Below, in pieces: positions 8,440-11,637 of a stretch of DNA of 18,300 nucleotides. Both the position numbers and the translations under genes were made by a program. Every line of letters begins with the position of its first letter. Position 1 is the first letter of the stretch. Below the pieces are notes generated by a model. The model had not been told where the DNA came from. It saw only the letters and a list, made by a program, of their open reading frames with translations, and did no database searches. Origin of the DNA: a virus (Duplodnaviria > Heunggongvirae > Uroviricota > Caudoviricetes); IMG/VR virus record IMGVR_UViG_2529292920_000008. One strand, written 5' to 3'.

Positions 8440-9063
8440 ATGAGACTCGAAAGCGTAGCTAAATTTCATTCGCCAAAAAGCCCGATGATGAGCGACTCAC
8501 CACGGGCCACGGCTTCTGACTCTCTTTCCGGTACTGATGTGATGGCTGCTATGGGGATGGCGCAATCACAAGCCGGATTCGGAATGGCTGCATTCTGCGG
8601 TAAGCACGAACTCAGCCAGAACGACAAACAAAAGGCTATCAACTATCTGATGCAATTTGCACACAAGGTATCGGGGAAATACCGTGGCGTGGCAAAGCTT
8701 GAAGGAAATACTAAGGCAAAGGTACTGCAAGTGCTCGCAACATTCGCTTATGCGGATTATTGCCGTAGTGCCGCGACGCCGGGCGCAAGATGCAGAGATT
8801 GCCACGGTACAGGCCGTGCGGTTGATATAGCCAAAACAGAGCAGTGGGGGATAGTTGCTGAGAAAGAGTGCGGAAGATGTAAAGGCGTCGGTTATTCAAG
8901 AATGCCAGCAAGCGCCGCATATCGCGCTGTGACGATGCTAATCCCAAACCTTACCCAACCCACCTGGTCACGCACTGTTAAGCCGCTGTATGACGCTCTG
9001 GTTGTGCAATGCCACAAGGAAGAGTCAATCGCAGACAACATTTTGAATGCGATCACACGTTAG
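8440..9063 (+). CDS. Q: late gene antiterminator Q (lambda type)
   Basis: 207 aa from MRLESVAKFHSPKSPMMSDSPRATASD..., near-identical to lambda Q as recalled. The ORF-track start at 8407 is an upstream extension. Confidence 0.95.
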   Translation: MRLESVAKFHSPKSPMMSDSPRATASDSLSGTDVMAAMGMAQSQAGFGMAAFCGKHELSQNDKQKAINYLMQFAHKVSGKYRGVAKLEGNTKAKVLQVLATFAYADYCRSAATPGARCRDCHGTGRAVDIAKTEQWGIVAEKECGRCKGVGYSRMPASAAYRAVTMLIPNLTQPTWSRTVKPLYDALVVQCHKEESIADNILNAITR

Positions 9064-9099
9064 CGCCATGATTGCCACGGATGGCAACATATTAACGGC

Positions 9100-9160
9100 A
9101 TAATATTGACTTTTTGAATAACTTTGGGGAAACTTGACACCAATAATGGGCGTTTTTTAC
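9100..9160 (+). promoter_or_regulatory. late promoter PR' with qut-like region (lambda-like)
   Basis: ATTGACTTTTTGAATAACTTTGGGGAAACTTGACACCAATAATGGGCG closely parallels the lambda PR'/qut sequence as recalled. -35 TTGACT at 9107-9112, 17-bp spacer, -10-like GAAACT. Confidence 0.5.
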
Positions 9161-9300
9161 ATGTCATTGATGAGTCTCAATAACCTGCCGCCGAGTAGTT
9201 TTTATGCTCTGAATTGTATTTGTGTAGTAAACATGCTGACTGCAATGTAATAGAGTTTTTTTAGCCTGTAACCTCTTGACGGCATTGAATTGCTTTTGTT

Positions 9301-10059
9301 ATGAGTTGTAAGCCAATGTTATCATCTTGTATTGGGGTGGTTATGAAGGATGGTGCACTGCTCAGGAGTTCTTCACTTTTTATTGCCTACATGGGATGCC
9401 TTGGATGGGGGAGTGCTTATTTCTATGGATGGGGTACTTCTTTTTACTACGGCTTCCCATGGTGGATTGTAGGTGCAGGTGTTGATGATGTTGCCAGAAG
9501 TTTATTTTTTGCAGTTATCGTCATTGCTATATTTCTTATCGGTTGGGGTATTGGTGTTGTATTCTTTTTCGCAGTGAAAAGAAAACATTCTATGCAAGAG
9601 CTAAATGTATTTCGCCTTTATTTTGCTGTGGAATTATTGTTTGTGCCGGCAATTATTGAGTTTTCTATATTGAGACAGAAGATTCAGGTACCTCTTTTGC
9701 TACTGTCAGCAGCGATTGCGCTGGCGGTTACAATTTCGATAAGATCTTATGGGCGATTTTTATCGGTATCATGCTTCTATGATAAGCCATTTATAAAAAA
9801 ACATTTTTTTGAGATTGTGATGATTGCTTTTGTGGCATATTTTGGGCTTTTTTCATTTCTGACAGGATATTACAAACCACAGTTTAAGAAAGAATATGAA
9901 ATGATTAATTATAATGATGGTTGGTATTATGTTCTTGCTCGTTATGATAATTGTCTGGTTTTGTCTACTTCTTTCAATGCAGGTAGTAAAAGGTTTGTCA
10001 TTTATCAATCAGCACAAGATAAGAATCTTCAGGTTGATATTGTAAGGACCAGAATTTAA
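9301..10059 (+). CDS. hypothetical multi-pass inner-membrane protein; moron between PR' and the lysis cassette
   Basis: 252-aa ORF (alternative start ATG 9343 behind GGGGTGG) with about 5 hydrophobic helices (e.g. LFFAVIVIAIFLIGWGIGVVFFFAV) and a ~50-aa hydrophilic C-terminal tail. AT-rich relative to flanking genes. No family recognised. Confidence 0.6.
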   Translation: MSCKPMLSSCIGVVMKDGALLRSSSLFIAYMGCLGWGSAYFYGWGTSFYYGFPWWIVGAGVDDVARSLFFAVIVIAIFLIGWGIGVVFFFAVKRKHSMQELNVFRLYFAVELLFVPAIIEFSILRQKIQVPLLLLSAAIALAVTISIRSYGRFLSVSCFYDKPFIKKHFFEIVMIAFVAYFGLFSFLTGYYKPQFKKEYEMINYNDGWYYVLARYDNCLVLSTSFNAGSKRFVIYQSAQDKNLQVDIVRTRI

Positions 10060-10489
10060 TTGGCTGCATAAATAATATTTTAAGTTGCAAGTTGGCTATT
10101 CGTAGGAATAGAACCTTAGGCATGCTGAATGCGTTTTCTGAACATTGTTTTATAAACTGTGTCTGCTTGCTGTTGTGATCCTGCTTTTAGTGATGGTGAT
10201 GATGGATTTCACCAGCAGGATAATGTTGGTACTGACTGATGGCGCTCTGGTCTGCGGCATTGTGGTATTGCTGTGGCCGATGATGAAAGAACAGAATGAA
10301 TAATCCTTGACTTTTTTGTTTACTGTTTATTAAAAAATCAACCGCATGGTGAATCCTCCTTGGAGGGGCTAAATGATCGAGTTTTAAGGGCACGTAGCGA
10401 GTTCTGTTTGATCATTGCAGAACTTAGCGGGAGGCGCCATGCGTACATCACTAATGTTATTTCCTTCTATCATTTTCCTTGTGAGTTCT

Positions 10490-10516
10490 GGCTGCGCATG
10501 GCGCGGCCTTTTTTTT
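10490..10516 (+). terminator. intrinsic terminator, plus strand (tR'-like candidate)
   Basis: 8-bp stem GGCTGCGC/GCGCGGCC (one G-U pair), 3-nt loop, followed by eight T residues. Confidence 0.6.
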
Positions 10517-10692
10517 ATGACCTGCCACTGGCAGATGGTCATCCTGTGATTTGATTCCGGTTCCGGCTTTTTAACTCTGTTCCTGTACACGGGAGAAATT
10601 CTATGTCGATTAATCGTTATGATATTGGTTACAAGAAGTACCACGTATTGTGTTGAGATAGAAAGCATGGTGCCAGAGGTAAATGCAGCAGC

Positions 10693-10745
10693 ATAATAAA
10701 AAAGAGCCAGCGCAGAAGAGAACGGGTAAAAGAGTCTGCGCTGGC
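10693..10745 (-). terminator. intrinsic terminator, minus strand
   Basis: Perfect 11-bp inverted repeat GCCAGCGCAGA / TCTGCGCTGGC (10706-10716 with 10735-10745), 18-nt loop, followed on the minus strand by CUCUUUUUUAUUAU. Confidence 0.45.
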
Positions 10746-10861
10746 GTGGGGATATTCCCCGTGGAGAAATGATATGTAACACACATCGGGAACCTTTCTA
10801 TATAAACATTATCATTATTGTCAATCATAACAGTCAGGTATTATGACGTTTATGCATCAGG

Positions 10862-10893
10862 GCCATCAGGAATTAACTGGTGGCTTTTTATTG
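10862..10893 (+). terminator. intrinsic terminator, plus strand, just upstream of the holin gene
   Basis: 8-bp stem GCCATCAG/CTGGTGGC (one G-U pair), 7-nt loop, then TTTTTATTG. Confidence 0.5.
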
Positions 10894-10924
10894 TTGTCAG
10901 CTTCCGGATAACGGGAGACGGAGT

Positions 10925-11140
10925 ATGTATCAGATGGAAAAAATCACAACAGGTGTGTCATACACCACGTCAGCGGTGGGGACGGGATACTGGTTACTGC
11001 AGCTGCTGGACAAAGTCTCTCCGTCCCAGTGGGTGGCAATAGGTGTGCTGGGAAGTCTGCTGTTTGGCCTGCTGACGTATCTGACAAATCTTTATTTCAA
11101 GATTAAAGAAGATAAGCGTAAGGCTGCGAGAGGTGAATAA
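10925..11140 (+). CDS. class II holin / pinholin (phage 21 S-like) with dual-start motif
   Basis: 71 aa [71 protein letters not shown]: two TM segments, Met1/Met4 dual start, charged C-terminus; resembles S21 as recalled. GGGAGACGGAG Shine-Dalgarno. Confidence 0.85.
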
Positions 11141-11637
11141 TGTCGCCGTCATTACGCAAGGCTGTTGCAGCTGCTATTGGTGGTGGGGCTGTTGCCATAG
11201 CGTCTGTGCTCATCACTGGTCCAGGTGGTAACGATGGTCTGGAAGGTGTCAGCTACATACCATACAAAGATATCGTTGGCGTATGGACTGTATGTCACGG
11301 ACACACCGGAAAAGACATCATGCCCGGTAAAACGTATACCGAAGCAGAATGCAAAGCCCTCCTGAATAAAGACCTTGCCACGGTCGCCAGACAAATTAAC
11401 CCGTACATCAACGTCGATATACCGGAAACAACGCGCGGCGCTCTTTACTCGTTCGTTTACAACGTGGGCGCTGGCAATTTCAGAACATCGACGCTTCTTC
11501 GCAAAATAAACCAGGGTGATATCAAAGGCGCATGTGACCAGCTACGTCGCTGGACATACGCTGGCGGTAAGCAATGGAAAGGGCTGATGACCCGTCGTGA
11601 TATTGAGCGTGAAGTCTGTTTGTGGGGGCAGCAATGA
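11140..11637 (+). CDS. SAR endolysin (lysozyme with N-terminal signal-anchor-release domain, R21-like)
   Basis: 165 aa with a Gly/Ala-rich weakly hydrophobic N-terminus ([20 protein letters not shown]) followed by a lysozyme-like domain. Directly follows the pinholin, a known functional pairing. Confidence 0.85.

Follow-up and report, generated by a model that had tools for sequence, protein, structure and literature searches.

The late promoter PR' of lambda and of the Shiga toxin (Stx) phages is constitutively active in lysogens, where its transcript is ended at the first terminator, tR', to leave a short RNA (PMC7547250). The leaders so produced, lambda 6S RNA and StxS, are non-coding and 194-258 nt long; of the toxin genes, stx2 is located downstream of tR' and requires Q, while stx1 has its own Fur-repressed promoter (PMC7547250). 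Here we describe the corresponding region of an 18,300-nt window from a virus of the class Caudoviricetes (IMG/VR record IMGVR_UViG_2529292920_000008), a lambdoid prophage in which tfpB, a gene of the TfpB/STM1630 family, lies between the antiterminator gene Q and the lysis genes. The slot between Q and the lysis genes holds stxAB in Stx phages, and cargo genes of this kind are called morons, a term whose definition reportedly comes from Hendrix and colleagues. Like the classical morons and the stx genes, tfpB sits between PR' and the holin gene, deviates in base composition and is followed by a terminator; unlike stx2, it has no terminator between itself and PR'. The promoter is of the same type as those that make lambda 6S RNA and StxS, but the predicted leader is ~1.37 kb long and contains two protein genes and a putative small RNA. 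We regard tfpB, with moderate confidence, as a host-directed envelope cargo gene whose expression in lysogens comes from PR' read-through and perhaps also from a promoter of its own.

On alignment, the late promoter of the window is recognisable through homology and not through its match to consensus. The preceding gene encodes a lambda-type Q (Table 1), and the interval from 9064 to 9150 aligns with the PR'/qut region of lambda at 75 of 87 identical positions (86%) with the spacing retained; HK542 can be aligned as well, and the PR'/qut sequence is identical in phage 2B8. The -35 hexamer is TTGACT (9106-9111), the 17-nt spacer contains the Q-binding element, and the -10 hexamer is GAAACT (9129-9134), where lambda and HK542 have TAAATT. 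Transcription is predicted to start at ~9141/9142, and a sigma-dependent, -10-like pause element, AATAATGGG, occupies 9142-9150 (the lambda counterpart is AACGATGGG). A consensus promoter scan did not call this promoter, because its -10 matches at only three of six positions. An initial reading made from the letters alone (the sequence-only reading) had placed a PR'-like promoter at about 9107-9140, and homology to lambda confirms it.

No intrinsic terminator was found between this promoter and tfpB. A terminator scan and folding of 9142-9343 gave no hairpin followed by a U-tract, the leader as a whole folds no better than shuffled sequences (z -0.5), and no stable hairpin adjoins either of the T-runs (9153-9158 and 9258-9264). 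The leader is richer in G than in C throughout, which would make it a poor substrate for Rho loading; judged by base composition only, a rut site is not suggested. Where tR' would be expected, close behind PR' and before any gene, there is a relic hairpin of -2.2 kcal/mol, and the first real terminator stands 1.35 kb downstream. Hence the scan, the folding and the shuffles all bear out the sequence-only reading in its statements that no intrinsic terminator intervenes and that the first one, at 10490-10516, lies past the stop of the gene.

The relic can be traced to its source. Phage 434 and one O157:H7 prophage have a Q82-like antiterminator, a promoter-like TTGCAA-17-TATACT, an intact terminator and then tfpB. 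In 434 this terminator (AAACCCGCTGCCGAGTGGGTTTTTTTT) is annotated in the genome record, lies 147 nt upstream of the tfpB ATG and belongs to a phage 82-type PR'-terminator unit. The hairpin of the window is homologous to it (window, AACCTGCCGCCGAGTAG----TTTTTAT; phage 434, AACCCGCTGCCGAGTGGGTTTTTTTTAT), but two stem substitutions and a 4-nt deletion, which also trims the U-tract, separate the two. The intact 434/O157 hairpin reaches -12.5 kcal/mol with z -3.5 and U8, whereas the relic is left with z -0.3 and U5; the same ruined copy is carried by 2B8. The 434 unit has its Q82-like partner upstream, whereas the window has a lambda-type Q and PR', joined exactly at the foot of the hairpin. By this comparison, the missing tR' is a decayed copy of a terminator that is intact in sister prophages.

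With no terminator between PR' and tfpB, the late promoter would transcribe the gene without Q. The ancestral module would have consisted of a terminator, an own promoter and tfpB, and in this lineage a lambda-type Q-PR'-qut unit would have been joined at the foot of that terminator, whose hairpin would now be non-functional. Without Q, PR' would give a ~1.37-kb transcript that starts at ~9142, covers tfpB, a DUF3927 gene and an STnc100-like RNA, and stops at 10490-10516, where the terminator would keep the lysis genes off as a surrogate tR'; on induction, Q would raise tfpB expression further. TfpB would act on the host envelope to the benefit of the lysogen, and not in phage growth. Because the family is found elsewhere without PR', and because its Salmonella member STM1630 has its own promoter, read-through from PR' would be a lineage-specific addition rather than the basic mode of expression.

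The layout recurs. Of 5426 complete E. coli genomes, 572 carry a lambda-type junction with the decayed hairpin, and in 556 of these the identity is >=99%; one example is a defective O157:H7 prophage that has espW and a truncated endolysin. The 434-type junction with intact terminator is present in 618 of the same 5426 genomes, and some genomes, such as O157:H7 strain PV15-279, hold both types. Three lambda-type contexts (the window, 2B8 and O157 locus L022) all lack a plus-strand terminator between PR' and tfpB, and all have one or two terminators right after the DUF3927 gene, despite differing downstream sequence. A Yersinia enterocolitica prophage (L017, 2026-3399) may be a second, independent instance of tfpB in a late-promoter leader: Q, a good promoter-like site (TTGACC-18-TATATT) and tfpB follow one another there with no terminator-like site, on a contig that ends soon after. 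The suggestion in the sequence-only reading that PR' drives the gene in lysogens thus holds in part. No barrier stands in the way and the arrangement is found again in 2B8, in O157 and across the 572 genomes, but it is not general, since the 434/O157 layout is terminated.

As for the gene itself, its description as moron cargo between Q and the lysis genes stands. In HK542 the holin gene starts ~430 nt after the end of the Q gene, with PR' between them, while the same interval in the window is 1.86 kb; the base composition of the insert and the terminator downstream agree with this description. Both the open reading frame (ORF) first noted, 9301-10059, and its AT-richness (36% GC; Q has 51% and the window as a whole 49%) are upheld, but the length of 252 amino acids (aa) assigned to its product probably is not. 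Homologues are consistently 237-238 aa long, and a Shine-Dalgarno-like GGGG/GAGG precedes the ATG equivalent to 9343 in most contexts (the Salmonella copy is without it), so the true start is most likely this ATG, giving 238 aa, and not 9301. RefSeq calls the start at 9316 or 9343, depending on the genome. The ratio of nonsynonymous to synonymous substitution rates (dN/dS) is 0.09-0.18 in pairwise comparisons with copies ranging from 97% to 65% protein identity; tfpB is therefore a maintained protein gene under purifying selection. The window copy is one residue away from those of phage 434 (CPT_434_68) and O157:H7 prophages, being identical to this widespread allele apart from a substitution, W168G.

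Contrary to what was first stated, the protein does belong to a recognisable family. It matches PHROG 1521 (E 3.9e-153, residues 31-252), all 107 homologues carry PF27470 (TfpB) in precomputed annotation, among them the 99%-identical P0001, and RefSeq labels some copies as "STM1630 family protein". These labels are functionally empty, and tfpB does not represent a new kind of system: it is a common, catalogued cargo gene whose regulatory setting is unusual. The family is small. In a set of 1.84 billion clustered proteins, 72 representatives reach E <=0.001, and our searches found homologues only in Enterobacteriaceae and Pasteurellaceae. One contig labelled "MAG: Veillonella sp." (L023) carries the E. 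coli tfpB-DUF3927 cassette with the common E. coli TfpB allele, and is very probably mis-binned. The cluster of the homologue from plasmids of enterotoxigenic E. coli (ETEC) includes an old record entitled "protein tfpB [E. coli EPECa12]". The name may refer to an ORF flanking the genes for heat-labile enterotoxin (LT); a literature search for its origin gave only papers on type IV pili, chemistry and anaesthesia. A reading of the "TciB" label in the 434 record as a characterised colicin-tolerance locus was considered and rejected, as the literature has tciA, tciB and tciC as gene names of phage P1. Only the DUF3927 peptide resembles P1 TciB, and a relationship of TfpB to TciA is not supported.

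The predicted architecture is that of a membrane protein with a periplasmic part. About five transmembrane helices, as proposed from the sequence, are supported by hydropathy, by the positive-inside rule and by an AlphaFold2 model built with distant homologues (predicted local distance difference test, pLDDT, 78; predicted template modelling score, pTM, 0.71). The model has helices at residues 10-36, 47-78, 89-111, 116-136 and 155-181, and strands at 184-235, where five strands form a C-terminal beta domain of ~55 aa. Lys and Arg are enriched in the loops that follow helices 2 and 4, which predicts that the N-terminus lies inside and the C-terminus outside. It follows that an aromatic first loop and the C-terminal domain would face the periplasm, for an overall topology of a cytoplasmic N-terminus, five helices, and a periplasmic first loop and beta domain. 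The first loop carries a near-invariant aromatic and glycine-rich motif, GWGSAYFYGWG..YYGFPWW; the window protein has it as GWGSAYFYGWG..YYGFPWW..D..ARSLF, together with a C-terminal YKPQ.KKEY..WYYVLAR.

Copies of tfpB are also found away from phage late operons. On ETEC plasmids the gene is divergent from the LT genes, with insertion sequences around, and it is present with a Bor homologue in an island beside iroBC. On the Citrobacter rodentium chromosome it adjoins LpxR and in Salmonella it adjoins sseJ, with a common adh-MCP-LysR flank. Distant homologues in pathogens of the Pasteurellaceae (L028-L037; 29-34% identity) come from Haemophilus ducreyi, Aggregatibacter actinomycetemcomitans (which has two copies), Glaesserella and Pasteurella; they are flanked by housekeeping genes, and their surroundings contain no phage genes. 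The retention of tfpB at sites that lack a late promoter speaks for a host-directed role and for a promoter of its own. In the prophage with a 68%-identical copy, whose late region we take to resemble that of Stx phages, the order is Q, a methylase, two tRNAs, terminators, tfpB, LpxR, PmrD, a nanS-type esterase, DUF1378, DUF826 and holin. The gene for the lipid A deacylase LpxR is found ~2 kb or less from tfpB in three arrangements, those of 434/O157, C. rodentium and this Stx-like prophage (L001 310-1269, L012 3863-4823, L019 5972-6919 and L020 7187-7504), and the last also has its PmrD gene near tfpB. This proximity may reflect a link to the envelope and lipid A, or merely a clustering of cargo genes.

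Published experiments concern STM1630 of Salmonella Typhimurium, which is 46% identical to TfpB of the window and like it in length, motifs and predicted architecture. STM1630 is chromosomal and has its own promoter, whereas the window copy lies in a PR' leader and carries W168G. According to a study that includes ST313 strains, STM1630 is 717 bp long, lies between steB and sseJ, is bound by H-NS, has its own mapped promoter and -10, and is expressed within macrophages and in medium that induces Salmonella pathogenicity island 2 (SPI-2) (PMC6785131). In the same study, the gene is silenced in ST313 strains by two single-nucleotide polymorphisms in the -10 box, its deletion in strain 4/74 increases intramacrophage replication, and earlier screens cited there found mutants attenuated in calves and chickens (PMC6785131). 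STM1630 is also among the genes co-regulated with virulence regulators (PMC2639726), and its deletion was hypermotile in one screen (PMC4219756).

These Salmonella data lend weight to the best surviving alternative, which we consider rather unlikely: that tfpB is expressed solely from its own regulated promoter, silenced by H-NS and induced by the environment, that PR' contributes nothing meaningful, and that the decay of the hairpin is neutral. Besides the mapped -10 and the H-NS binding of STM1630, there are two overlapping candidate promoters just upstream of the E. coli gene, both TG-extended, one seen by eye and the other called by a tool (9296-9325). Their CTTGAC and TTTGT(T/A)ATG blocks are kept in the ETEC plasmid and iro-island copies, where there is no PR', and the proximal 75 nt are more conserved than shuffles in comparison with the ETEC (z 3.3), iro-island (z 2.0) and Stx-like (z 2.1) copies. 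E. coli tfpB thus perhaps has a promoter of its own, as far as sequence conservation can tell. A CII-binding consensus (TTGY-N6-TTGY) is annotated close upstream of tfpB in the 434 record (L001 2598-2611), and the window has the same TTGTTATGAGTTGT at 9296-9309; this is likely due to chance, because so degenerate a pattern turns up at three places in the 434 region.

Several further observations weigh against the reading that we prefer, some of them in direct favour of an own promoter as the sole source of expression. The -10 of PR' in the window departs from that of lambda and HK542 at two positions, including the first T, and its basal activity may, to judge from these letters, be low. The gene is 99.7% identical to its counterpart in 434, the leader 94.7% and the hairpin 75%; given this gradient toward the junction, the hairpin may have decayed by neutral drift at a mosaic boundary and not through selection. 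The 434-type layout with its terminator is equally common, so read-through is not needed for tfpB to be retained. By analogy with STM1630, the AT-rich tfpB of E. coli is likely an H-NS target, and elongation from PR' could be blocked. The proximal 75 nt are not conserved above shuffles in comparison with the Citrobacter, Yersinia and Salmonella copies, which weakens the case for an own promoter. The W168G substitution (TGG to GGG at 9844; residue 168 of the 238-aa protein) is private to the window copy and falls in helix 5, at a site where at least 90% of the family and six of six close relatives have Trp, so this copy may be impaired. Finally, we found no sequence or structural link of TfpB to any characterised protein, and sequence searches of NCBIfam, PADLOC, PDB and a copy of Pfam that lacks PF27470 gave nothing significant. 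The homology and structure searches proposed with the sequence-only reading have therefore placed the protein in a catalogued family, but have not tied it to a protein of described function.

Other points speak against an own promoter acting alone. The sequence between PR' and tfpB presents no barrier, three contexts that differ downstream share the arrangement of no terminator before the cargo and one right behind it, and PR' of the lambda type is reported to be constitutive (PMC7547250). We therefore retain read-through from PR', perhaps joined by an own promoter, as the preferred account of tfpB expression in this lineage.

Two other roles for the gene are less likely than expression from an own promoter alone. 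In the first, which we think improbable, tfpB is a late gene like stx2, abundant only after Q induction and serving the lytic cycle or lysis, for example through an envelope change before or during release. It lies within the late operon between Q and holin, in the slot that we take to be that of stx in Stx phages, and it is preceded by an intact terminator in 434/O157 and by several terminators in the Stx-like prophage. However, it is kept under purifying selection without any phage in Salmonella, C. rodentium, the Pasteurellaceae and ETEC plasmids, and it is retained in the defective O157 prophage despite the truncated endolysin. The second, to which we give a similarly small chance, is that of a prophage membrane protein for superinfection exclusion or abortive infection. 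TfpB is a prophage-borne, predicted inner-membrane protein that is made or could be made in lysogens, and many exclusion and abortive-infection proteins likewise sit in the membrane and have an unknown fold. But none of the 5027 PADLOC defence models matched it at E up to 1, and the Salmonella phenotypes concern host infection and motility. Moreover, the protein evolves slowly and its predicted periplasmic motif is near-invariant from Enterobacteriaceae to Pasteurellaceae, so a conserved host partner fits better than a phage target. Where the sequence-only reading had left the choice between a lysogenic-conversion and an exclusion gene, the evidence favours the lysogenic-conversion type as the best reading and disfavours exclusion on account of the slow evolution and the lack of a PADLOC match. 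Least probable of all is that the window copy is inactive or decaying cargo in a layout without present function: it carries W168G at a conserved Trp and the neighbouring esterase gene of 434 is deleted, but its reading frame is unbroken, the protein otherwise matches the widespread allele exactly, and this lone substitution, seen in a single sequence, could mark a hypomorphic allele or be a sequencing error.

The remaining features of the region complete the cassette (Table 1). In phage 434 the order is Q, tfpB, DUF3927, esterase and holin. The linkage of DUF3927 to tfpB is limited to close relatives of this cassette; as an obligate partner of tfpB it was rejected, since it is absent beside all divergent tfpB copies. 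Rfam and tRNA scans of the window gave nothing at threshold, the match to STnc100 being below the gathering score of 47. A 64-aa ORF at 10360-10554, a membrane protein in the 434 record, is frame-shifted between near-identical relatives, so a non-coding RNA gene is more probable here than a protein gene. The putative RNA ends at the first strong terminator, which may belong to it. Compared with phage 434 (window 10627-10925 against L001 3904-5754), the SASA/nanS-type esterase gene after the cassette is missing: homology stops at 10627, and the holin gene begins at 10925. A hypothetical minus-strand ORF in RefSeq (10384-10782) spans the scar of this deletion. A weak minus-strand match at 10696-10785 to Esr41, a small RNA of enterohaemorrhagic E. 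coli (EHEC), scores 32 bits against a gathering score of 102 and is probably due to chance.

Table 1. Features of the window between Q and the lysis cassette, in order of position
Feature	Position	Strand	Basis
Q, lambda-type late antiterminator gene	8440..9063	+	Pfam Antiterm E 1.4e-57; 203/207 residues identical to lambda Q (98%)
PR' late promoter, qut and pause element	9106..9150	+	Alignment to lambda and HK542
Decayed relic of a tR'-type terminator	9183..9207	+	Alignment to intact phage 434/O157:H7 hairpin
Two overlapping candidate tfpB promoters	9276..9325	+	TTGACG-18-TATGAG (by eye); TTGTTA-18-TATCAT (tool)
tfpB (TfpB/STM1630 family, PF27470), 238 aa, most likely start	9343..10059	+	Maximal ORF from 9301
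DUF3927 small membrane protein ("TciB-like")	10145..10303	+	Pfam DUF3927 E 3.4e-14; PHROG 1470
Probable STnc100-related small RNA	10314..10519	+	Rfam RF02076, full length, 37.7 bits (sub-threshold), E ~1e-6
First strong intrinsic terminator past PR'	10490..10516	+	8-bp stem, 7 GC pairs, T8 (U8 in the RNA); -15.2 kcal/mol, z -3.6
Second terminator-like hairpin, just 5' of holin gene	10859..10897	+	Similar site at same place in L022
Class II holin, start of lysis cassette	10925..11140	+	RefSeq annotation of 99.8% identical region
Endolysin	11140-11637		Lysis cassette

Two points make this locus of interest: a PR' leader that has become a probable lysogenic transcript, and a protein that accompanies toxins, effectors and lipid A enzymes. 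TfpB is found beside AB5 toxin genes or in their place (LT on ETEC plasmids; in a close relative, the slot presumed to be that of stx), next to the effector gene sseJ of Salmonella, and in numerous pathogenic E. coli. A bolder extension, which we offer as tentative and more doubtful than the reading above, is that in about one in ten complete E. coli genomes, O157:H7 included, loss of tR' has turned a non-coding PR' leader into a constitutive lysogenic operon for TfpB, the DUF3927 peptide and the STnc100-like RNA. The terminator of the small RNA would silence the lysis genes, and TfpB would be a virulence-associated envelope factor of enteric and Pasteurellaceae pathogens. The occurrence of the same gene behind an intact terminator and behind a decayed one, at times within a single O157:H7 genome (PV15-279), provides a natural comparison for the expression of cargo genes from constitutive late promoters in lysogens, as well as a handle on the function of TfpB.

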